IMG/VR virus record: IMGVR_UViG_3300023213_000432
Coordinates: 96,001-160,000 of that record
Length of the DNA: 64,000 nucleotides
Origin: a virus
Lineage: Duplodnaviria > Caudoviricetes
Strand: one strand, 5' to 3'
The translations under genes and the position numbers were made by a program. Positions 4,328 to 58,523 of this stretch are shown here, in pieces; the first letter of the stretch is position 1; every line of letters begins with the position of its first letter. The notes under the pieces were generated by a model, which had not been told where the DNA came from, searched no databases, and was given only the letters and a program-made list of their open reading frames with translations.

Positions 4328-4460
4328 GTCAATTACCATCAGCACAAGGCTAATAGCTTGTAAGTAGCATTTCTGCTCCTACAATAGGCTGATTGACAAC
4401 AGCCCGATCCGATAGCCCTTGGCTATCAAGATGCTTGAGGACAATATTTCTACTGCCATT
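4328..4460 (-). ncRNA. TnpB reRNA/omegaRNA scaffold (5' end approximate)
   Basis: Overlaps the tnpB 3' end; block GGGCTGT[T/C]GTCAATCAGCCTA is conserved in five elements; ends at TTGAC, with the flank as guide. Confidence 0.65.
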
Positions 4461-5477
4461 CAAGTCTGCATTTAATCTAAATCCACATTGCTTGCAGCAA
4501 AAGTTAGCTTGACTCTTTCGATTAGAGCGACAAATATATCCACATTTGCTACACCTCTGAGAAGTATAGCGAGCATCAATATAAACTATGTTAATACCCT
4601 TAGCGGCACCCTTATAGATCAAGAACTGTTCTAATTGAAAGAAAGACCAATTGTTGAGCAAAGTGCGTTGTTCTTTTCTTAATCGCTTGTTGCGAATCCC
4701 TGTTAGATCCTCTAATACGATAGTGTCTCCTGGATTTAGTTTATCGATAATCTCCTTGCTAATTTGATGGTTAACATCTGCTCGAAACCGTCTCTCCTTT
4801 CGAGATAATTCTCGAAGGTGTCTTTTGGCAGATTTGCTTCCTGTTCGTTGAAGTCTTTTGCGAAGTCTCTGATAGCGGCGCACAACTCGCTTTACCTCTC
4901 CTCCTCCAAAGAATTGATTGTTGGAGGAAACTGCTAGGTTATTAATCCCTCTGTCGATGCCCACAAAAGTTCCAGCAGGTTGAACGTCTTCAATATCCTT
5001 TTCAAAAACGATATGCAGGAAAACTTTCTTTTTGATGATGCAGAGATCTGCGGAAGTATGCTTCCAAGTTTTAAAATATTCTTTGTAAAAGTTTGGAATT
5101 GTAAGCTGATAGCGTTTTCGTCCATTGATGGTCAGCAGAGAAAGTTGTTGAACATCTAAGAATAGCGTATAAGAATTCTTATCTAAACGAATGCTACACA
5201 GATGGGAATGAGGACAAGAATAATAGCGCTTAGGTTTGGAAAAGACTCCTTTGAGAGCCTCGGTAGCTTTCATCCTAGCGGAGATAGCAAGTTGAGAGGG
5301 AAGATAATCACGTGTCGTATAATAGCAAAGATCGTGAAGTTTGACGCCGTTCTTTTCTTTCTTCTCGAAACCTGTTTGAGCCACGAAGTTAAACGCTTTG
5401 GTATAAGCCTCTAAGGTAGGTAAAATCTCAGGAATTGAGATATTAAGTTTGATCTTAGCGGTTCTTACCAACTTCAT
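4350..5477 (-). CDS. tnpB: TnpB RNA-guided endonuclease
   Basis: RuvC-I GIDRG, RuvC-II VLEDL, YTSQRCSKCG...CKQC zinc finger, RuvC-III NADLNGSRNI; catalytic D/E/D intact. Confidence 0.95.
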   Translation of the reverse strand: MKLVRTAKIKLNISIPEILPTLEAYTKAFNFVAQTGFEKKEKNGVKLHDLCYYTTRDYLPSQLAISARMKATEALKGVFSKPKRYYSCPHSHLCSIRLDKNSYTLFLDVQQLSLLTINGRKRYQLTIPNFYKEYFKTWKHTSADLCIIKKKVFLHIVFEKDIEDVQPAGTFVGIDRGINNLAVSSNNQFFGGGEVKRVVRRYQRLRKRLQRTGSKSAKRHLRELSRKERRFRADVNHQISKEIIDKLNPGDTIVLEDLTGIRNKRLRKEQRTLLNNWSFFQLEQFLIYKGAAKGINIVYIDARYTSQRCSKCGYICRSNRKSQANFCCKQCGFRLNADLNGSRNIVLKHLDSQGLSDRAVVNQPIVGAEMLLTSY

Positions 5478-5483
5478 ACTGAT

Positions 5484-5511
5484 TATATAACTACATATTG
5501 ATAGATGTCAA
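5484..5511 (-). promoter_or_regulatory. sigma70-like promoter in the TnpB element left end
   Basis: TTGACA-N16-TATATA (or N18-TATAAT) 6 nt upstream of the tnpB ATG; same motif at 22536. Confidence 0.6.
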
Positions 5512-5822
5512 GAGAAAAAGAAAGGAAAAGACAATTCCTCCCATAGCACAAGGCTATGGGTATCCTTGCCTAAGAGATCATGAAGTTGATGCGGCTTGGG
5601 AAGAGTGTGAAGTTAAATTTGAATCCGCCCGAAATAAAATAGAAGGTGCAGTAGAGGACTTGGAACGAGCCAATAATTTAGCAATCGAATTCGATATTAA
5701 GATTGCAGCTCGGTTTAATAAGATTGATGTTCTGAGTTTGTTGAGCCAGTTAACTGAAGCAGGTTGGTCGCATTCGAGTTTAGAGTGTTAATTATAATTG
5801 TTGAAGAAAAATCTGAAAAATA

Positions 5823-15145: not shown

Positions 15146-16206
15146 TTGAGGAAATAATAGAAATTGGTTCCCGTTATCGATAACCACAAACAACCATTAA
15201 TGCCTTGCTCTGAGAAAAGAGCCAGGAGACTTATGGAGAAAGGTAGCGCTATTTCATATTGGCAGAAAGGTATCTTTTGCATTCGTCTAACTAAAGAACC
15301 TTCTAACCGACAAACACAACCCATTGCTCTTGGGATTGATCCAGGAAGTAAAAGAGAAGGATATACTGTTGCTACTAGAAAAGCAGTAGTATTGAATATT
15401 ACCTCCAATACTCCGGGCTGGATTAAAAAACATATTGATACTCGAAGACAATTACGGAAAAGCCGAAGATATAGAAAAACTCCTTATCGTTCTTGTCGAG
15501 AAAATAGAGCTACTTTGAGGAAAGATCGTGTTCCTCCTTCCACCAAAGCAAGGTGGAATGCTAAATTGCGAATGGTTATTTTTCTTCTGAAAATTATTCC
15601 TATTACCATTATTAATGTAGAAGATGTTGCCGCTTACACTAAGAAAGGACAAGCAAAGTGGAACGTTTCTTTCTCTCCTTTGGAGGTTGGAAAAGTTTGG
15701 TTTTATCAAGAGATAAAAAACCTTGGAGTTCAGCTTCTCAAAACTGAAGGACATCAAACTCAAGAAAAACGAGATCAGCGCGGGTTTCAAAAATCATCTT
15801 CCAAGCTTAGCTATTCTTGGAATGCTCATAACGTAGATAGTCATGTTCTTGCGGAGATGGCGCTAGGAACAGAAATCTTTCCATATTATGGATTGTGGAA
15901 GATAGAATTTTTAGAATTTCATCGAAGACAACTTCACGTTCAGAATCCAATTAAGAATAGCATCAGAAAACAATATGGGACTACTATTTCTATGAAAATG
16001 CCCAGAGGATCTGTCATAAGACATAAAGGTAAGTTCTATTATCTTGGAGGAAGTAGCAAAGGTAGAGTTACTATTCATAGCGTCATTACAGGAAAGAGAA
16101 TTAAGCAATCTGTCAAGAAGGAGAATATTGTTGTTTTATATGCACAGAATAGGAGAGTTCAATTCCTCCCACGATTAAAATCGTGGGTCTCCTTGAACCA
16201 ATTTTC
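14843..16206 (+). mobile_element. IS200/IS605-family OMEGA element carrying omegaRNA and isrB (copy 1)
   Basis: GTCAATAACCCATGACTAAACTCATGGG start, ~320-nt omegaRNA, isrB, end hairpin CCCACGATTAAAATCGTGGG, followed by ATGAA. Confidence 0.92.
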
Positions 16207-18700: not shown

Positions 18701-19761
18701 TTTTGAGGAAAAGAAACATTGGTTCCCGTCATCGATAACTACAAACAACCATTAATGCCTTGCTCTGAGAAAAGAGCTAGGAAACTTATGGAAAAAGGAA
18801 AGGCTATTTCATATTGGCAGAAAGGTATCTTTTGCATTCGTCTAACCAAAGAACCTTCTAACCGACAAACACAACCCATTGCTCTTGGCATTGATCCTGG
18901 AAGTAAAAGAGAAGGATATACTGTTGCTACTAAGAAAGCAGTAGTTATCAATATCACAACTAATACTCCAGGCTGGATTAAAGATCATGTAGAGACTCGT
19001 AGAAACCTTCGAAGATCTAGAAGATACCGAAAGACTCCTTATCGCTCCTGTCGAGAAAATAGAGCAACTCTTCGAAAAAATCGAGTTCCTCCTTCCACCA
19101 AAGCCAGGTGGAATGCTAAACTGAGAATTATTAAATTCATTCTGAAAATTATTCCTATTACAATCGTTAATGTAGAAGATATTGCCGCTTACACTAAGAA
19201 GGGACAAGCAAAGTGGAATACTTCCTTCTCTCCTTTAGAGGTTGGAAAAACTTGGTTCTATCGTGAGTTAGAAAACTTCGGAGTTCAGCTTCTCAAAACC
19301 AAAGGAACCAAAACTCAAGAAAAACGAGATCAGCGAGATTTTCATAAGCTATCTTCCAAGCTTGATTATTCTTGGAGTGCTCATAACGTGGATAGCCATG
19401 TCCTTGTGGAGATAGCATTGGAATCAGAAATCTCTCCATATTATGGACTATGGAAAATAGAGTTTTTAGAATTTCATCGTAGACAACTTCATGTCCAGAA
19501 TCCAATCAGAGGCAATATCAGAAAACGATATGGAACTACTATTTCTATGAAAATGCCCAGAGGTTCTGTCGTAAAACATAAAGGTAAGTTATATTATCTT
19601 GGTGGAAATAAAAAAGGGAAAGTTTCGCTCCATAGTATCATTACAGGAAAAAGAATTAAACAATCTGTCAAGAAGAGAGATATTGGCGTTTTGTATGCAC
19701 AGAATAGGAGAGTTCAGCTCCTTCCACGATTAAAATCGTGGGTCTCCTTGAGCCTATTTTA
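18403..19761 (+). mobile_element. IS200/IS605-family OMEGA element carrying omegaRNA and isrB (copy 2)
   Basis: Same ends as 14843..16206; followed by ATGAA at 19762. Confidence 0.92.
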
Positions 19762-23113: not shown

Positions 23114-23590
23114 ATGAAAAAACAACCATTTACGATCGGAGATCGAGTAGGATTTAATGCCATTTTCAAAGATCAGGATACTTATAATGATTGCGATGCA
23201 GGATTTTATGATCTTGCTTTCGATGAGTATTATGATCCGTGTTATGGGGAAGTTATTGAAATAATCGAACCGAGTGACAATCTTATTATCAAGTGGGATG
23301 AAAATGACGACTATATTGACGAGTATAAACCTGAGGACGGCTGGAATGCCAAAGACTTCCTCCCCGAGAAAGAATTAAAAAAGAAATATTCTCATCTGGA
23401 AAAAGAATTCCGAACTATGGAAAAAGCAGTAAAAGCTAAAGTTAAAAAGGCAGCTGTTATCATCAGAGAAGCCAACAAAATGACAAAAGAACACGGTAAA
23501 ACTTTATCAGAATTGTGGGACGTCCGTCGTCCTTTATACGATGCGATGGATAATGCAGGCTGGCACACCTCTTCATTTGATTGTCCATGA
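23114..23590 (+). CDS. hypothetical protein (SH3-like N-terminus; GWxxSxxC paralogue family)
   Basis: GAGGA RBS; ends NAGWHTSSFDCP. Confidence 0.7.
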   Translation: MKKQPFTIGDRVGFNAIFKDQDTYNDCDAGFYDLAFDEYYDPCYGEVIEIIEPSDNLIIKWDENDDYIDEYKPEDGWNAKDFLPEKELKKKYSHLEKEFRTMEKAVKAKVKKAAVIIREANKMTKEHGKTLSELWDVRRPLYDAMDNAGWHTSSFDCP

Positions 23591-24114
23591 GCTTCAAAAA
23601 TAGTTTTTGTTCCTACTGTGGAGTTAAATTCACGGAGCAAATTAAATACCCACGAAAGTGTTTTAGCTGCTATCAGGATACTTATTTTAATCCATTGCCT
23701 GCGACTATCTCTATCCTTCGAGTATTTGATCCAGAGAGCCATGGTTATTATAGAAGATGGGGAGTGCTAATCACCAAACGAAACATTGAGCCACATAAAG
23801 GTAAATTTTGTTTGGTGGGCGGGTTTTTGGAAAATAATGGCGAAACATGGCAAGAAGCCTCGGCTCGGGAAATGCAAGAAGAAATCCAACTATCTCTTGA
23901 TCCTAGCGAATTCAGTTTAGTGGATATTAAAAATTCCACTGCACCTAAAGGAATTTTATTAATTATAAATATGGTGATTACCATTAAAGAATTCGCCCAG
24001 ATCAAGTTTCAGCCTAATAACGAAGTTAGTCAATTACCAATGACTAAAGTCCTTGGCTTGTCGCTCATCCTACCATTGATAGGAGGTTGTTTTTTAATGG
24101 CAACAATAGGCTGA
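23587..24114 (+). CDS. zinc-ribbon NUDIX hydrolase (NudC/ADPRase-like); C-terminus altered by IS
   Basis: CSYCG...CFSC, LVGGFLENNGETWQEASAREMQEE; residues after 24028 come from the element. Confidence 0.8.
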   Translation: MSFKNSFCSYCGVKFTEQIKYPRKCFSCYQDTYFNPLPATISILRVFDPESHGYYRRWGVLITKRNIEPHKGKFCLVGGFLENNGETWQEASAREMQEEIQLSLDPSEFSLVDIKNSTAPKGILLIINMVITIKEFAQIKFQPNNEVSQLPMTKVLGLSLILPLIGGCFLMATIG

Positions 24115-24377
24115 TTGACAACAGCCCTAAATAAAGTTTGGCGTTTCTAATAGCGACCTGTTAAAAACCGTTTGCTTATTCGATCATAAATGATCAAGAA
24201 AGTGCCTTCTAGGTCTCGATTCGCTAAACGTAGATATTAATTTTTAACTCATCTCTTACCTCTTTCTATTTAGATAGCAAAAGATATATAACCACCATGC
24301 TTGAAGTTTTTAAGAAAAAGAAAGAAAAAAGCAATTCCTCCCATGATTAAAATCATGGGCTTCCTTGCTAAGAGATC
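24029..24377 (-). mobile_element. non-autonomous TnpB-type element (349 bp)
   Basis: On the + strand GTCAATTACCAATGACTAAAGTCCTTGG...CCCATGATTAAAATCATGGG...AAGAGATC; near-identical to 31328..31687; flank is GTAAT rather than ATGAA. Confidence 0.88.
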
Positions 24378-24445
24378 GTAATCGATTAATATTGCTTAGT
24401 TCGCTGAACCAAGTCGAGCCTCTACCACCAACTAAAAGGAAATCT

Positions 24446-31111: not shown

Positions 31112-31728
31112 ATGACAACACGATTTCAAGTTGGAGATTACGTTTTGCGGATGGAAGCAGATTTTTCAAGCGGCATATTAGTGCATGGCGGTATTTATCA
31201 AATTGCCGGCGTTATTAATGATCCTCGGACTATTAAGTTGATAGGGTTTGGGGGAGTTGGGATGTCCATAGGTTTAAATTGATTAAATCTCCCTACGCTC
31301 AATCTTGTCCTTGTGGCATCCATTGGAGTCAATTACCAATGACTAAAGTCCTTGGCTTGTCGCTCATCCTACCATAAGCAGGAGGTTATTTTTTAATGGC
31401 AACAATAGGCTGATTGACAGCAGCCCTTAATAAAGTTTGGCGTTTCTAATAGCGACCCTTTAAAAAAACCGTTTGCTTATTCGATCATAAATGATCGAGT
31501 TAAGTGCCTTCTAGGTCTCGATTCGCTAAACATAGGATAATAGCTTTCTAACTCATCTCTTACCTCTTTCTGTTACATTTGGGTAGCAAAAGATATATAA
31601 CCACCATTCTTGGAAGTTTTTTAGAAAAAGAAAGAAAAAGCAATTCCTCCCATGATTAAAATCATGGGCTTCTTTGCTAAGAAGATCGTGAATGCCCTCA
31701 ACATATTCAAGAAGTAAAAGCTTTCTAA
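31112..31728 (+). pseudogene. small SH3-like/Cys-tail gene, frameshifted and IS-interrupted
   Basis: MTTRFQVGDYV...; frameshift near the G-run at 31244-31253; excision joins CPCGIHWS|ECPQHIQEVKAF*. Confidence 0.55.
31328..31687 (-). mobile_element. non-autonomous TnpB-type element (360 bp)
   Basis: Near-identical to 24029..24377; followed by GTGAA. Confidence 0.9.
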
Positions 31729-33932: not shown

Positions 33933-35045
33933 ATGGCTATTAGATTAAGTAATACAACCATTGATCAAAAATTATATGGTTATAGCATTCGACGCCTTGA
34001 TGATTGTAGCAACGCTAAAATAACTGATAAAGTAATGTGGTCGTGTTTAAATTGCGGACATGCATGGAAAACAACTATACGCAAAATTGTGTGGAAAGAA
34101 ACGGGTTGTCCCCAATGCGCCGGTAATATTAAATTATCTAATGCAATAATTGATCAAAGATTAATTAATAGAGACATTCGAAGAATTGGTGATTATGTTA
34201 ATGCTAATAGTAAGATTGAATGGCAATGTTTAAATTGTAAATATATGTGGATCACAACACCCAGAAGTGTTGTGGATCTTAAAACTGGATGTCCATTTTG
34301 TGCAGGCAATTTACGATTAACAAATCAAATAATTGATCAGAAATTAATTGGGCGGAATATCCAAAGAATTGAAAATTATAATGGCGCTCATTTAAAAATA
34401 CTTTGGAATTGCATGACTTGTAATTATGAGTGGAGCGCAACACCTGGCCACATTCTTAATGGTGGTCGTGGGTGTCCTCGATGTGCTAATAATATTCGCT
34501 TGACCAACGAAATAATAGATCAAAGATTGATTAATAGGTCAATCAAGAGGATCGGCGAATATTATAACTCCTGCACCAAAATTGACTGGCAATGTTTGAC
34601 ATGTATGCATCGCTGGAAAGCGTTGCCACCTAATGTTGTTAGTCTCGAAAAGGGATGTCCAAAATGTAGTACCATAGGTATCAATGAAGCGTTAATGATC
34701 AGTATTTTTCATCAATATAATTTAGAATTTGAACCCCATTATTCTATTAGAAATATAGATAATGTAGAGCGCAATCTTATTTTTGATACCTATTTCCCTC
34801 TAATAAAATTGGCCATTGAATATAATGGAAAACAACATTATATTCCAACAGGGTTTTTCAATAGTGATAATCCTGAAGAAGAGTTTAAAAAACAGCAAGA
34901 AAGAGATGAATATAAAAGATTATTCTGTAAGAGAAATTCAATCCAATTAATAGAAATTGATGGTAGAAAATTCTACAATGAAAGACTCAAAAAGTATCTA
35001 ATATATGATGTGGTGCCCATGATAAAGGAAATGGGTATTAAATGA
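33933..35045 (+). CDS. tandem zinc-ribbon repeats plus PD-(D/E)XK (Vsr/DUF559-like) endonuclease
   Basis: Four W-x-C-xx-C...W...GCPxC repeats; FDTYFP..KLAIEYNGKQHY. Confidence 0.78.
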   Translation: MAIRLSNTTIDQKLYGYSIRRLDDCSNAKITDKVMWSCLNCGHAWKTTIRKIVWKETGCPQCAGNIKLSNAIIDQRLINRDIRRIGDYVNANSKIEWQCLNCKYMWITTPRSVVDLKTGCPFCAGNLRLTNQIIDQKLIGRNIQRIENYNGAHLKILWNCMTCNYEWSATPGHILNGGRGCPRCANNIRLTNEIIDQRLINRSIKRIGEYYNSCTKIDWQCLTCMHRWKALPPNVVSLEKGCPKCSTIGINEALMISIFHQYNLEFEPHYSIRNIDNVERNLIFDTYFPLIKLAIEYNGKQHYIPTGFFNSDNPEEEFKKQQERDEYKRLFCKRNSIQLIEIDGRKFYNERLKKYLIYDVVPMIKEMGIK

Positions 35046-44326: not shown

Positions 44327-45823
44327 ATGAGTTTAACCATCGAAGTTTTACCATCCAATAAAATATTTTCTGAGTTAGAAAACAATACTACCAGTTTCTT
44401 CCATCTATTATCAGAACTTGTTGATAACTCAATTGCTGCTATGGTGGATGGGTTATGCAGCATCTCTATAGAGATTGTTGCAGATTGGTCGAGCAAAAAG
44501 AAATTTTATGAGACAGGACAAATTATTGTTCATGATGATGCTGGCGGTATCTCTAGATCGGAAATCGGACAAGCTATTTCACCAGCAGCAAACGCTTGTA
44601 AAAACCCAAATTCTCTTAATAGGCATGGTATAGGCGGTAAAATAACTATTATGTCTGTAGGCACTAAATTAGACGAGAAATCGGGATTTTTAACAGGAGT
44701 TGAAATTACCACAAAAACAAAGTCGGACGACCAGATTACCAAAATTGATCAGATTGGATTTGGAAAAATCCCTTACTCTACTATCAATGATAATAACATT
44801 TTTCCTAAAGGACATGGAACAAGAATTACAATCAAAAATTTAAAACCGATCGTTTATTGTAGAAAATCGGATTATACACAAATCATAATTCCATTATTGG
44901 GACATAGGTATCAACTTTATTTGAATGGCTCCTTAAACAAGAAGGTAAAAATAACCCTCAAACTATTGGATATGGATAGTAACCCAATTGTAAATGCGAA
45001 GGGCAATCTCCAAGTATTCGAAATTGTTCCGATAACACCGGTTTTTCAAGGCGGCTCACCTATTTTAGATACGGTTTTGCACCCTAACAAAGACAACAAA
45101 AAAGGTTGGAGAGCACATATGAGATTTGGGTGGAGTCCAAGCAAAGAGGCATTGGCCGAAATTGGAACTGATAAAGATCAATGTAGATTATTTGTCAAAA
45201 AGAATTCTCCATATTATATCGACAATCGAAAAATAGATCTTATTACGAATGGTGTGGTAATTTGTCAGGTTGGATATGATTGGTTATCACCATTTAAAGG
45301 AGAAGAAACCATTGAAAGAGATTGGCGCGGTAACAGCCCAAGGCTAATTATTACTCTTGAAAATGGTTTCCAAACCACCATCACAAAAGATGCTTTCGTT
45401 GATGATGATAATTTAAAAACACTCAAGAAAATAGTTCTTGAGCGTATTAAGAAATATGCCAATACTGATAAAAGTAGGATAAAAGAAAGCGAAGAAGAGA
45501 CAAAGAATAGAGTAGAGGCTATGTTGTTGGAGACCTGTGAAAATGTTAAAAGAGAGCCCACCATCGGAAGTTATGGGCTTAGGGCTGATTTTTCACTAAA
45601 AAAGAAAGGGGCACCTCAAATCTGGGAATGTAAAATACAACAAGCTAGCGTTTCAGATGTAATACAACTAGTAGGATATCTAAAGCTTGATGGCTGTTTA
45701 AATGGCAAATTGATAGCGCCAGATTTTAGCGACAATGCCAGAAACCTTGTGAAAGATTGCTCAGACATTTTCGGAGTAAACGTAGAATTAACTTCCTATA
45801 AAGATCTCGGACTTCAACTATAA
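44327..45823 (+). CDS. GHKL (MORC/HATPase_c_3) ATPase fused to a C-terminal PD-(D/E)XK nuclease-like domain
   Basis: LSELVDNSIAA, VHDDAGGIS, NRHGIGGK, GHGTRITI; C-terminal RADF...IWECK......QLVGY. Confidence 0.75.
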   Translation: MSLTIEVLPSNKIFSELENNTTSFFHLLSELVDNSIAAMVDGLCSISIEIVADWSSKKKFYETGQIIVHDDAGGISRSEIGQAISPAANACKNPNSLNRHGIGGKITIMSVGTKLDEKSGFLTGVEITTKTKSDDQITKIDQIGFGKIPYSTINDNNIFPKGHGTRITIKNLKPIVYCRKSDYTQIIIPLLGHRYQLYLNGSLNKKVKITLKLLDMDSNPIVNAKGNLQVFEIVPITPVFQGGSPILDTVLHPNKDNKKGWRAHMRFGWSPSKEALAEIGTDKDQCRLFVKKNSPYYIDNRKIDLITNGVVICQVGYDWLSPFKGEETIERDWRGNSPRLIITLENGFQTTITKDAFVDDDNLKTLKKIVLERIKKYANTDKSRIKESEEETKNRVEAMLLETCENVKREPTIGSYGLRADFSLKKKGAPQIWECKIQQASVSDVIQLVGYLKLDGCLNGKLIAPDFSDNARNLVKDCSDIFGVNVELTSYKDLGLQL

Positions 45824-45827
45824 TAAA

Positions 45828-47708
45828 ATGAAATTTTATCATCTTCTTTTCTTCTTCCTCACCAGTTGCGGAGCCCTCACCCTCTTCTCTCCCGTTCCTG
45901 CTCCCATCCAGCCTCGCCCTATCCAATATCTTTCGGGCTCCTCTTTTCATCCCGAAATTACCAATGGGCTTTCTAACGAAGACCGCGGCACTTACTATCA
46001 CTTTGATGAAGGGATTCAGTGGCTTCCCACTGATGTTATGCTTTCATTGAAACGTCCCTCTTCTAACGTGTTTAAGGTAATGGATGAATTACTGTTAGCT
46101 AAGCCAGAACGTTTTGGTCTTCTCCCCAATTACATTGATGTGCTTTATCCTAACCAACTTAATCCACAAGCGGACATCCCTTTAGGAATTACTATTTCCA
46201 CCAACACCGATTATGTTCCTATGTCCGGAATATCATGCAGCTCATGTCATACTACCATTATTTCTAATTCCGAAGGACATTTCTTCTTAGTTGATGGGGC
46301 TCCTTCTCGTTTTGCGGTAGATCGTTTCGTGGCGGAAATGGTCAAATCTTTGGCGGCTACTTTGGCTAATCCAGTAGAATTTGAAGCCTTTTATGAGCGC
46401 TTTAAAGCTCGTCTTCATTTTGGAATGGGGGAAAGTTATGATCGATTAATATTGCTCAGTTCGCTGAGACTCAAAGATCATCCTGACCTTAAGGCTCTAG
46501 CTCCAGTAGTAGAAAAAGCCTTTAATACCAATGATTGTCAAGAATTGCAAACCAAACTTTCTACTATTTCTAATCCCATTACCTATCGTTTTCAGCGTTT
46601 TACAACCCTTGATTCTGCCTATCCAACTTATGCTATGCTTGGCAATCAACAGGGAATGTATTTCTATTTGGTCAAGCGTTTCATCTTCTTGTTGGAACAA
46701 ACGAAATATGGAACGGCTGACAAAGATTCTTTGGTGGCAGAAAGTGGATTGGGGCGAGCTAACCCATGGAGTGTAGCAAAGAAACTCATCTCCGATAAAT
46801 ATTTCCATCTCAAAAACGCAGTCCATGTAGAAGGTGGGCCAGTAAGCACTCCCTATATGTGGGATTATGATCGCCAAACTTGGGTCTTTTGGAGCGGAAC
46901 CACTAACTCTATGCTGGAACGCAATTTGGCTCAATGCACTACTCTTTTGACCGATTTTAATGAGAAAACTTACGAGACCACCTGCTCCGTCAAGAAACTT
47001 CAGGACATTTCTTATTATGCTCAAAAAATTCAAGCTCCCAAGTGGCCCGAAGCAATTTTAGGCAGCATCGATACCGATAAAGCTAATAAGGGCAAAATCA
47101 TCTTTCAGGATAAATGTTTAAATTGCCATGATCCCAAAGCTTCTTATACTCTCACCGGAACCGCTTCTTATACCTATATAAGTGTTGGAACTGATCCTAA
47201 CTATATTCAAGGACAACTGGAATTAATTAATAAGAAAGATATTTTTACTGGTATGATTGCACCATGGATTAATCATGTAAAGGAAGTAGCCGCCCTTCAA
47301 ATAGAAGGTTTAATTTATATAGATTTGTTAAATTATGAGAATGGAAGATTGCCAGCTACATGGCGCAGTCCAGAGTTGAATCGAATCGAAGCGAAACCAC
47401 TTGCTGGTGTCTGGGCTACTGCACCTTATCTTCATAATGGAAGCGTGCCCACTATTTGGGATTTATTGCAACCAGTGGATCAGCGCCCCCATCGATTTCA
47501 TATTGGCGGGTTTGTTTATGATACCAAAAAGCTTGGATATATTGGAGATGAGAATTTGCCGGATGGATTTGAGTTCGAGGTAAATTGTTTGCATTGTCAA
47601 GGGAATAGCAATCAAGGACATGAATTTGGTACCGAGCTAAGTTCGGAAGATAAATGGAACTTGATTGAATTTCTCAAGTCCTATAATAATGAGACAACAT
47701 TTAAATGA
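45828..47708 (+). CDS. exported di-haem cytochrome c, RoxA-like (CCP/MauG superfamily)
   Basis: Lipobox FFLTSC; CSSCH (46236) and CLNCH (47115); PLAGVWATAPYLHNGSVPTIWDLL motif. Confidence 0.8.
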   Translation: MKFYHLLFFFLTSCGALTLFSPVPAPIQPRPIQYLSGSSFHPEITNGLSNEDRGTYYHFDEGIQWLPTDVMLSLKRPSSNVFKVMDELLLAKPERFGLLPNYIDVLYPNQLNPQADIPLGITISTNTDYVPMSGISCSSCHTTIISNSEGHFFLVDGAPSRFAVDRFVAEMVKSLAATLANPVEFEAFYERFKARLHFGMGESYDRLILLSSLRLKDHPDLKALAPVVEKAFNTNDCQELQTKLSTISNPITYRFQRFTTLDSAYPTYAMLGNQQGMYFYLVKRFIFLLEQTKYGTADKDSLVAESGLGRANPWSVAKKLISDKYFHLKNAVHVEGGPVSTPYMWDYDRQTWVFWSGTTNSMLERNLAQCTTLLTDFNEKTYETTCSVKKLQDISYYAQKIQAPKWPEAILGSIDTDKANKGKIIFQDKCLNCHDPKASYTLTGTASYTYISVGTDPNYIQGQLELINKKDIFTGMIAPWINHVKEVAALQIEGLIYIDLLNYENGRLPATWRSPELNRIEAKPLAGVWATAPYLHNGSVPTIWDLLQPVDQRPHRFHIGGFVYDTKKLGYIGDENLPDGFEFEVNCLHCQGNSNQGHEFGTELSSEDKWNLIEFLKSYNNETTFK

Positions 47709-51061: not shown

Positions 51062-51339
51062 ATTCAATGATATATCACATATTAAAGGCATAAAACAACA
51101 TATTATCAACAACAAGGGAGTTTAGTTCATTTAGAAGAACGCGACAATAGCATTGTCGATGTGCTGGGAGCGTAGCCCAGAACTTCCACTAACTCGCGCT
51201 TATCTCACTTGTTGAGGTAAGTAGATCGAGTAAAAATTATGGCAATTGATTGCTCGGTACGCCGAGACCGCCACTAGTAGAACACAGACTGGTGGCACTG
51301 CCGAACACTTGATATAGTTGTACTATAGAGAGGAAACTA

Positions 51340-57282: not shown

Positions 57283-57846
57283 TTGGCTAAACTATTACTC
57301 AAATTCCATCAAGATATAGTGGTTGAAAAATTAGAAGTCGAGAAGAGATATTTAGTAGAGTTGCCATCTTCTTGGAGAGACTTAGCATCTATGTTTGATG
57401 GCTTGGTGGATGTAAAAAGGATTAAGCAGATTTATCTTCGTCCTGATAGTAGCGGAATATCTTCAAGAATAAGAAAAACAGTCCAAGGTTTGTTGGGCAA
57501 GATTCAAATCGTATATCATGCCAATCAAAAAGAATTCGTGGAAGCTGGAGTGCATAAAGAAACGGAACACCAAATTTCCAAAGAAGAATATGAAAAAGCA
57601 CTAGAAAAAAGGCATCCCGATAAAGTAGTGATTGAAAAGACACGTTTTGTCTTTAATTATCATGATCAGTGTTTTGAACTAGATTTATTCAAAGGAGCAT
57701 TGGGCGGATTGGCGATTTTGGAGCTGGAGTTATCCGATCAAAATCAGAAAGTAGAATTGCCGCCTTTCTTGAAGGTAATTGAAGAAATAACAGAGGATCG
57801 CAGATTTAGTAACTTTCAATTAGCCACTAAGGAGCTGCACAAATGA
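57283..57846 (+). CDS. CYTH-domain (adenylate cyclase/triphosphatase-like) protein
   Basis: EVEKRYLV, IKQIYL, RIRK, IEKTR, FELDLF, LELE. Confidence 0.85.
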   Translation: MAKLLLKFHQDIVVEKLEVEKRYLVELPSSWRDLASMFDGLVDVKRIKQIYLRPDSSGISSRIRKTVQGLLGKIQIVYHANQKEFVEAGVHKETEHQISKEEYEKALEKRHPDKVVIEKTRFVFNYHDQCFELDLFKGALGGLAILELELSDQNQKVELPPFLKVIEEITEDRRFSNFQLATKELHK

Positions 57847-57911
57847 ATTGTCGTCCAAAAGAAGTCAAGCGCCCGGTCAAGGGTTGCCAATAATCCAATA
57901 TAAAGACTATT

Positions 57912-57939
57912 GTCAATTACCAATGACTAAAGTCCTTGG
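57912..57939. mobile_element. solo right end of the TnpB-type family
   Basis: GTCAATTACCAATGACTAAAGTCCTTGG, identical to the ends at 24029 and 31328. Confidence 0.8.
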
Positions 57940-58027
57940 AAACTGAACCGGTCAAGGATCGGCTCCCGCTGGAAACGGGCTGGTACCCGTCATAGGGTAT
58001 GGGATGCAAGCTCTCCGGTTTCCGCCA
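57938..58027 (+). tRNA. tRNA-Sec-like 8/4 cloverleaf with GGA (Ser) anticodon (allo-tRNA-like)
   Basis: 8-bp acceptor GGAAACTG/CGGTTTCC plus GCCA; 6-bp D stem CCGGTC/GATCGG; loop CT-GGA-AA; long V arm GTACCC/GGGTAT; 4-bp T stem GGGA/TCTC with TGCAAGC loop. Confidence 0.78.
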
Positions 58028-58042
58028 ACGTTGCACTTTAAG

Positions 58043-58088
58043 GTCAATTACCCATGATTAAAATTATGGGCTTCCTTGCTTAGAGATC
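58043..58088. mobile_element. 46-bp minimal element (both ends sharing one hairpin)
   Basis: GTCAATTA-CCCATGATTAAAATTATGGG-CTTCCTTGCTTAGAGATC|ATGAT. Confidence 0.8.
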
Positions 58089-58190: not shown

Positions 58191-58523
58191 ATGGGCACGC
58201 CAAAATTGAAAGACCCAAATTTTTCGTTCGATGAGGAAGAACTTGATGTCCCGCTTGACATTCAAGATATTATTACCGTGTGTCGAGAATATAGCAAATT
58301 AGGATGGCATCTTCAGCGCCAAATAGAGGCAATATTAGAATTTGGAAATGTGGAAGAAGCTATTAAAATGGGACAGGTTAAAAAAGAAGCTCTGCCCCAC
58401 ATTAAGGAGTTTTTAATGGTAATATCTAATACGCACTATTTCGGTGATGCTGCTTATCAGGCTCATGATTGTATTTTTTTGATCGAACGATATCAGGATA
58501 ACCAAATATCAAGCCTCAACTAA
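58191..58523 (+). CDS. hypothetical protein
   Basis: GGAG RBS, ATG 58191. Confidence 0.65.
   Translation: MGTPKLKDPNFSFDEEELDVPLDIQDIITVCREYSKLGWHLQRQIEAILEFGNVEEAIKMGQVKKEALPHIKEFLMVISNTHYFGDAAYQAHDCIFLIERYQDNQISSLN

Follow-up and report, generated by a model that had tools for sequence, protein, structure and literature searches.

Does a 90-base segment in a 345-bp gap between two plus-strand phage genes encode a genuine tRNA and, if so, of which kind and with what role? The question is raised by the 64 kb stretch of phage DNA analyzed here (the window), which is part of a 198,652-bp record from IMG/VR (G000 in coordinates below; CheckV completeness estimate 46%) and in which the initial annotation had read a non-canonical 8/4 tRNA, likened to allo-tRNAs, with a serine GGA anticodon.

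Structure of the Candidate Gene

The 90 bases at 57938–58027 draw as a cloverleaf matching that first description (Table 1). All 8 + 4 pairs of the acceptor and T stems are standard, the linker between acceptor stem and D arm is AA, and the GC content (0.56–0.60) forms a local peak vs. approximately 0.38 in the flanks.

Table 1. Coordinates of the candidate tRNA gene, its parts, its neighbors and related features (window positions unless a locus or G000 is given).
Feature	Position	Strand	Details and basis
8/4 tRNA-Ser(GGA) gene, including G73 and encoded CCA	57938..58027	+	Sequence; leave-one-out model R2; family covariation
Acceptor stem	57938-57945 with 58016-58023	+	8 bp, GGAAACUG with CGGUUUCC, one U-G
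D arm	57948-57962	+	6-bp stem (one G-U), 3-nt loop AAG
Anticodon arm	57964-57980	+	Loop CUGGAAA; stem of 4 bp plus U-C mismatch at 27:43
Anticodon GGA	57971..57973	+	Sequence; family members have GGA, UGA, CGA or GCU there
Variable arm	57981-57999	+	5-bp stem, 6-nt loop
T arm	58001-58015	+	4-bp stem GGGA/UCUC, loop UGCAAGC
G73; CCA	58024; 58025-58027	+	Sequence
CYTH-domain protein gene, upstream	57283..57846	+	Homologues named CYTH/PF01928; synteny
Downstream ORF (orf58191), no assigned function	58191..58523	+	tblastn synteny with L013, L014, L015
Sigma-70-like promoter match, weak	57884..57913	+	TTGCCA, 18 nt, TATTGT; 9/12 consensus matches
28-bp IS200/IS605-type end module	57912..57939	+	Terminus GTCAATTA and 8-bp hairpin with TAAA loop
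46-bp mini-element	58043..58088	+	GTCAATTA terminus, hairpin, tail of the other IS end, ending ...AGATCATGA
Motifs and the RRXRR genes that follow them	14843, gene near 15167; 18403, gene near 18722; G000 65133/65460; G000 167253/167574		
Canonical 7/5 tRNA-Ser(GGA) adjoining tRNA-Cys	L013:10628-10716; L014:11624-11715; L015:12426-12515		

The expectation that standard scanners may miss such a gene was borne out for ARAGORN and for the Rfam covariance models. ARAGORN gave no plus-strand call of the candidate, either by default or with thresholds relaxed down to 60%; Rfam returned no match to it at gathering scores, and neither RF00005 nor the tRNA-Sec model RF01852 matched at E ≤ 10, on 801 or on 106 bases. 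The canonical tRNA class was rejected for the candidate on the missing RF00005 match and the missing plus-strand ARAGORN call. The only ARAGORN call in the window is a doubtful tRNA-Ala(AGC) elsewhere, at 51116–51189, with no Rfam tRNA match at gathering score; it may be a further tRNA of non-canonical form or simply a miscall.

The minimum free energy fold of the candidate recovers four helices out of five, those of the acceptor, D, anticodon and variable arms, with a non-significant z-score of –1.28; in a 211-nt context an IS hairpin is preferred and the acceptor stem is not formed. The case for more than chance is carried by homology (leave-one-out score and covariation), not by thermodynamic folding alone.

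A Family of 8/4 Serine tRNAs in Phages

Homologues were collected from IMG/VR with a pattern drawn from four sequences, in which only GGAA..AA, the T arm and TTCCGC were fixed, while the anticodon, the D, anticodon and variable stems and acceptor pairs 5–8 were left free. The scan yielded at least 118 loci, many of them on contigs >100 kb, with 104 distinct sequences among the matches listed, all with serine anticodons (CGA 34, GCT 31, TGA 21 and GGA 18, plus one alignment-shifted GCT). G73 is not independent evidence for the family, being fixed by the search pattern. Aligned with MAFFT, the sequences show pairing in 91.9% of cells, with a covariation score of 0.657 vs. 0.178 for shuffles and 0.06–0.14 for slid partners.

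A first covariance model (R1) gave 261 matches in 100 loci, and a second (R2) was built from the best 150 of these (131 distinct), none of them from this window. Applied to the candidate as a leave-one-out model, R2 scores 76.6 bits (E 9.6e-17), matching its entire length and on the plus strand only; this is its sole match in the window, with a score in the middle of the family range. The canonical tRNA-Ser(GGA) genes of related megaphages score only 32–34 bits on the 8/4 model of the family. For the best 150 of the 261 matches, pairing holds in 93% of cells, changes on both sides are seen in 27 of 28 pairs, and the covariation score reaches 0.73 (vs. 0.20 for shuffles and 0.09–0.17 for slid partners). 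Across the family, covariation is strong in the acceptor, D, anticodon and variable stems, and T-stem cells are 100% paired in the alignment. The eighth acceptor pair itself covaries (GC 48, UA 37, AU 23, CG 22 and one unpaired or other, in the 131 distinct members), and thus the 8/4 split is real. D loops are mostly 3–5 nt long in the family, the candidate lying at the short end. The 131 distinct sequences of the best 150 have the anticodons CGA (41), GCT (34), GGA (32) and TGA (24) and no others; within the 100 loci, three phages (L026, L044 and L052) each have all four isoacceptors in 8/4 form. Taken at the level of sequence, a real, structurally intact and well-formed 8/4 serine tRNA gene in a phage is thereby confirmed: fold, covariation and leave-one-out match bear out the proposal of an authentic 8/4 tRNA that has GGA as its anticodon and carries serine identity marks, as well as its location in a phage.

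Two features that the initial annotation had singled out as atypical, the T loop and the T-C pair of the anticodon stem, turn out to be family norms. At 27:43, where the candidate has a mismatch, 87 of 131 members form no pair, and 9 of 105 sequences have a T loop of the TGCAAG type. Two further non-Watson-Crick pairs kept in the candidate are likewise shared: U7-G66 is the form that this pair most often takes (85/131) and G50-U64 is nearly universal (122/131). The candidate A52-U62 is a compensated variant of G-C. In the D and T loops, G55 always occurs with A18 (13/13) and U55 mostly with G18 (Fisher 8e-13, relatedness ignored); the candidate carries A18, G19, G55 and C56. This A18/G55 switch fits a changed 18:55 tertiary contact between the D loop and the T loop. 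T-loop positions 54 and 60 also covary, as A..A (ATCGAGA, ATCAAGA) or T..T (TTCGAGT, TGCAAGT), and together with the restriction of G55 to A18 this pairing suggests altered elbow contacts.

Within phage loci, family members are located inside tRNA arrays. The same pattern, scanned against 185,579 bacterial and archaeal species genomes, found 87 stretches only, most of them within dense tRNA arrays, with carriers including Myxococcales/Polyangia, Nocardia, Roseibium, Verrucomicrobiota, Planctomycetota and Saprospiraceae. Since the bacterial stretches are few and mostly in arrays, the family is mainly a feature of phages and of tRNA arrays. In the bacterial loci that we inspected (L136–L222), the 8/4 tRNA-Ser mostly belongs to arrays that can reach 32 tRNA genes per 8 kb.

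Genomic Setting and Related Megaphages

The CYTH-domain protein encoded upstream of the candidate has relatives, 60–68% identical, on contigs of 400–490 kb; they were found by a word-index protein search, and four of these loci were compared. A related-locus search of viral contigs with the CYTH protein returned nothing, and a 99%-identical protein (P0001) was not traceable to a contig. The common gene order is HNH, two small ORFs, CYTH, a variable interval, the orf58191 homologue, FA hydroxylase and Fer4; in the window, too, the FA_hydroxylase and Fer4 genes (by Pfam) come after orf58191. The CYTH gene and orf58191 are thus the conserved left and right anchors of what is, in the relatives of approximately 400 kb, a tRNA-rich interval of 3.6–6 kb with many tRNA genes, vs. 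345 bp here.

The interval of the relatives includes a canonical pair of tRNA-Cys and tRNA-Ser(GGA) and, as revealed by nhmmer with the candidate as query, full-length look-alikes that ARAGORN does not call. These have the same architecture with anticodons CGA or GCT and show compensating changes in the D, anticodon and acceptor stems. Close relatives at the DNA level were found neither by blastn in the phage collection nor as exact 24–25-mers in IMG/VR, and an exact 25-mer of the tRNA had no match in metagenome contigs (in all of these collections the records of the source genome itself may be masked). Within the 198-kb record, model R1 detected no second 8/4 copy.

Several other features were observed in these phages. 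Two of the related loci contain a full bacterial class A RNase P RNA (RF00010, 276–278 bits) directly upstream of the CYTH gene (L015:9629–9977 and L014:8719–9053), with no such match in the window. ARAGORN called a tmRNA with the tag ANDNNAFVQMPLAA at G000 23279–23637, outside the window, and family loci L056 and L090 likewise have a tmRNA (RF00023). A 769-aa ORF with a Cas12f1-like TNB domain lies at L013:10836–13145, between the canonical tRNA-Ser(GGA) and an 8/4 tRNA-Ser(GCT).

Insertion Sequence Ends Flanking the Gene

The candidate is bracketed by ends of IS200/IS605-type elements. On its left, the last two G of the 28-bp module are G1 and G2 of the tRNA; the module matches, at 100% identity, the left ends of MITE-like repeats at window positions 24029 and 31328 and at G000 94032 and 34413 (minus strand), and it aligns with the left end of a phage TnpB element (window 4333–5585). 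On its right, the 46-bp mini-element starts 15 nt past CCA, as established by alignments with MITE and TnpB-element ends and by self-BLAST. Both kinds of IS end thus flank the tRNA in the order and orientation found in the MITE-like repeats and the TnpB element. The MITE-like repeats themselves are 360 bp long (window 24029–24380 and 31328–31690, G000 94032–94390 and a partial copy at G000 34337–34415 on the minus strand), are 91–94% identical to each other and have IS200/IS605-type ends of both kinds; the sequence between these is related to the terminal regions of the TnpB element.

The phage record is rich in such elements, with four TnpB genes, one Y1 TnpA gene at G000 45421–45840 on the minus strand, and four RRXRR (IscB/IsrB-like) genes. 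The RRXRR genes encode 349–377 aa, and each lies approximately 320 nt downstream of a GTCAATAACCCATGA...TAAA hairpin motif; the region between motif and gene is probably their guide (omega) RNA. In metagenomes, motif and hairpin occur approximately 100–230 nt ahead of IscB genes whose products have RRXRR and HNH domains, and this position before RRXRR and IscB genes identifies the motif GTCAATTA as the guide-adjacent end of IS200/IS605-family elements. A phage promoter and a CRISPR-like solitary repeat were both considered for this motif and rejected, as it is the terminus of TnpB and IscB/IsrB-type elements. A tblastn search with the phage TnpB proteins found almost none beside the motif in metagenomes, where IscB genes stand instead, and the TnpB-like gene adjoining the 8/4 tRNA in L013 has ends unrelated to the motif.

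Most simply, the end remnants around the candidate are debris of the many such elements of this phage, and the simplest reading of the short interval is that IS insertions and deletions shrank it and left the candidate gene. Because the IS end abuts the gene and overlaps G1G2, the native 5' leader was replaced and the native promoter was possibly lost. The sigma-70-like match directly upstream of the IS end, in a region where the total of such matches is not above that of shuffles, is only a hint of a promoter for the tRNA.

The gene could accordingly be a recently silenced relic, intact in structure but deprived of promoter and leader as IS-mediated rearrangements shrank the region, and making no contribution to translation. 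Contraction of the interval to 345 bp, from 3.6–6 kb with several tRNAs in relatives, replacement of the leader by an IS end up to G1G2 and the weakness of the sole promoter-like site all point this way. We nevertheless consider it unlikely: every stem pair is standard apart from the family-typical 27:43, the hallmark wobbles are retained, and the gene is co-oriented with both of its neighbors, so that read-through transcription could serve the tRNA.

Similarly improbable, in our estimate, is that the 177-bp stretch 57912–58088 is a working unit, either a PATE/MITE-like mini-transposon with the tRNA as cargo, movable by Y1 TnpA (and compatible with a functional tRNA), or the first hairpin of an IscB/IsrB-type guide RNA fused to the tRNA. 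The order and orientation of both ends, the Y1 transposase gene in the genome and the perfect identity of the left 28 bp to four other copies speak for such a mini-transposon. Yet both self-BLAST and the covariance model find the tRNA and the composite only once in the 198-kb record, IS ends are absent around the homologous 8/4 tRNAs in the equivalent interval of relatives, and none of 100 metagenomic loci with the end motif has an adjoining 8/4 tRNA; in other words, neither copies nor an empty site nor a recurrent association indicative of mobility was seen in the record, the relatives or these 100 loci. The extra internal GTCAATTA terminus also fits two separate remnants better. PATE/MITE-like derivatives of IS200/IS605 elements (TnpA/TnpB/IscB) share the terminal motif and the subterminal hairpins with the flanks of the candidate, which differs in being present in one copy with no sign of movement; we know of none that carries a tRNA. 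The IS-end bracket would matter only if mobile and, were a chimeric transcript true, an RNase P cut at G1 would set the 3' end of the upstream RNA.

Comparison With Known tRNA Classes

The paper to which the initial annotation had referred for 8/4 tRNAs (Mukai et al., 2017, Nucleic Acids Res 45:2776, PMC5389517) proves to be the right reference and describes (8/4) tRNA-Ser in bacteriophages. From this description we infer that the candidate belongs to the same lineage, as a further member of the published kind. In common with phage and bacterial (8/4) tRNA-Ser, it has a 12-bp branch of 8-bp acceptor and 4-bp T stems, a long variable arm with G73 (the published kind allows G73 or U73) as SerRS identity elements, a tRNA-Sec-like D arm (a long, covarying 6-bp stem with a very short loop) and a serine anticodon, and such tRNAs are likewise phage-borne and found among tRNA genes. 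It differs in its D loop, a pyrimidine-free triloop vs. the tetraloop given in that description, in the UGCAAG subtype of its T loop and in its bracket of IS200/IS605-type ends.

The likeness to allo-tRNAs (8/4 and 9/3 forms, described from Acidobacteria and others) stands in part. The 8/4 division of a 12-bp branch, serine identity and a tRNA-Sec-like D arm are shared, whereas most allo-tRNAs, as characterized in the same source, have non-serine anticodons and a longer anticodon stem, as compared with the cognate serine anticodon and 4–5 bp stem of the candidate. The longer anticodon stem and Y20 by which an (8/4) tRNA-Ser would count as an allo-tRNA are both lacking here. On account of its serine anticodon, the lack of a lengthened anticodon stem and the missing D-loop pyrimidine, we therefore file the candidate as (8/4) tRNA-Ser rather than as a core allo-tRNA.

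Like the candidate, bacterial tRNA-Sec (selC, RF01852) has G73, an 8-bp acceptor stem, a long variable arm and a D stem of 6 bp that ends in a short loop; it is serylated by SerRS, as is predicted for the candidate. A tRNA-Sec identity was rejected on the GGA (not UCA) anticodon, the T stem of 4 instead of 5 bp and the failure of RF01852 to match, and the anticodon stem is not longer either. The canonical class II tRNA-Ser of megaphages has the same anticodon and anticodon loop, a long variable arm and G73, and also lies in the interval downstream of CYTH; it differs in its 7/5 stems, its G18G19 D loop and its TTCGAAT or TTCAAAT T loop, and it is called by both ARAGORN and Rfam.

Predicted Function

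The reading that we favor, with a probability of roughly 0.8, is that the phage gene works and encodes a serine tRNA with an 8/4 cloverleaf, where expression, processing, charging and decoding are all predicted from sequence. The gene would be transcribed on the plus strand together with its neighbors, or from the weak upstream promoter, and the transcript would be trimmed by RNase P at G1 and by 3' nucleases to the encoded CCA. Serine charging would be performed by a host or phage seryl-tRNA synthetase via the long variable arm, G73 and the acceptor end (G1-C72/G2-C71/A3-U70). The anticodon plays no part in recognition by SerRS, which relies on the long variable arm together with features of the acceptor end and the discriminator. 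As the stacked acceptor/T helix still has 12 bp (8 + 4 vs. 7 + 5), EF-Tu and the ribosome would be expected to accept the tRNA, and its GGA anticodon would decode UCC and UCU, which together make up 44% of the serine codons in the long ORFs of this phage (UCC 15%, UCU 29%). [quoted passage not shown]

The latter reports, along with the non-canonical shape and the enrichment in phages, would suit an RNA that has the shape of a tRNA but acts outside translation, for example as a regulator or as a decoy for (or an escape from) host tRNA nucleases. A non-translational role, one of the possibilities raised at the outset, is disfavored, and we rate it slightly below the two IS-related readings. The four serine anticodons are strictly conserved (131 of 131 distinct members among the best matches), some phages have complete sets of all four isoacceptors, the anticodon loop is that of a standard tRNA-Ser, and escape from nucleases would leave decoding possible. 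Strict serine anticodons, complete isoacceptor sets and the array context thus indicate ordinary decoding.

The least probable reading, a chance fold or a minus-strand part of an IS guide RNA (omega RNA), to which the weak folding z-score and the location between IS ends (the usual place of guide-RNA scaffolds) lend some color, can be dismissed: family covariation and the leave-one-out match contradict a chance fold, and the guide-RNA reading was rejected on the plus-strand-only match of the covariance model and the worse minus-strand fold (three G-U pairs turn into A-C mismatches; –28.3 vs. –34.5 kcal/mol), with homologues in other phages also lacking the IS ends.

Implications for Phage tRNA Annotation

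Taken alone, the candidate is one further serine tRNA in a large phage, with a fold that is unusual for a tRNA but common among large phages. The failure of standard finders extends to the family as a whole: ARAGORN calls only 23 of the 106 family sequences tested (the candidate included) and misses the other 83, while at Rfam gathering thresholds more than 100 tRNAs were called in ten family loci with none of the 17 8/4 family members among them, even though some of these stand between called tRNAs. Since the finders miss the 8/4 family, phage tRNA counts, and the codon supply inferred from them, are biased against serine. The practical value of the finding lies accordingly in annotation, in bringing to view serine tRNAs of large phages that standard finders overlook.
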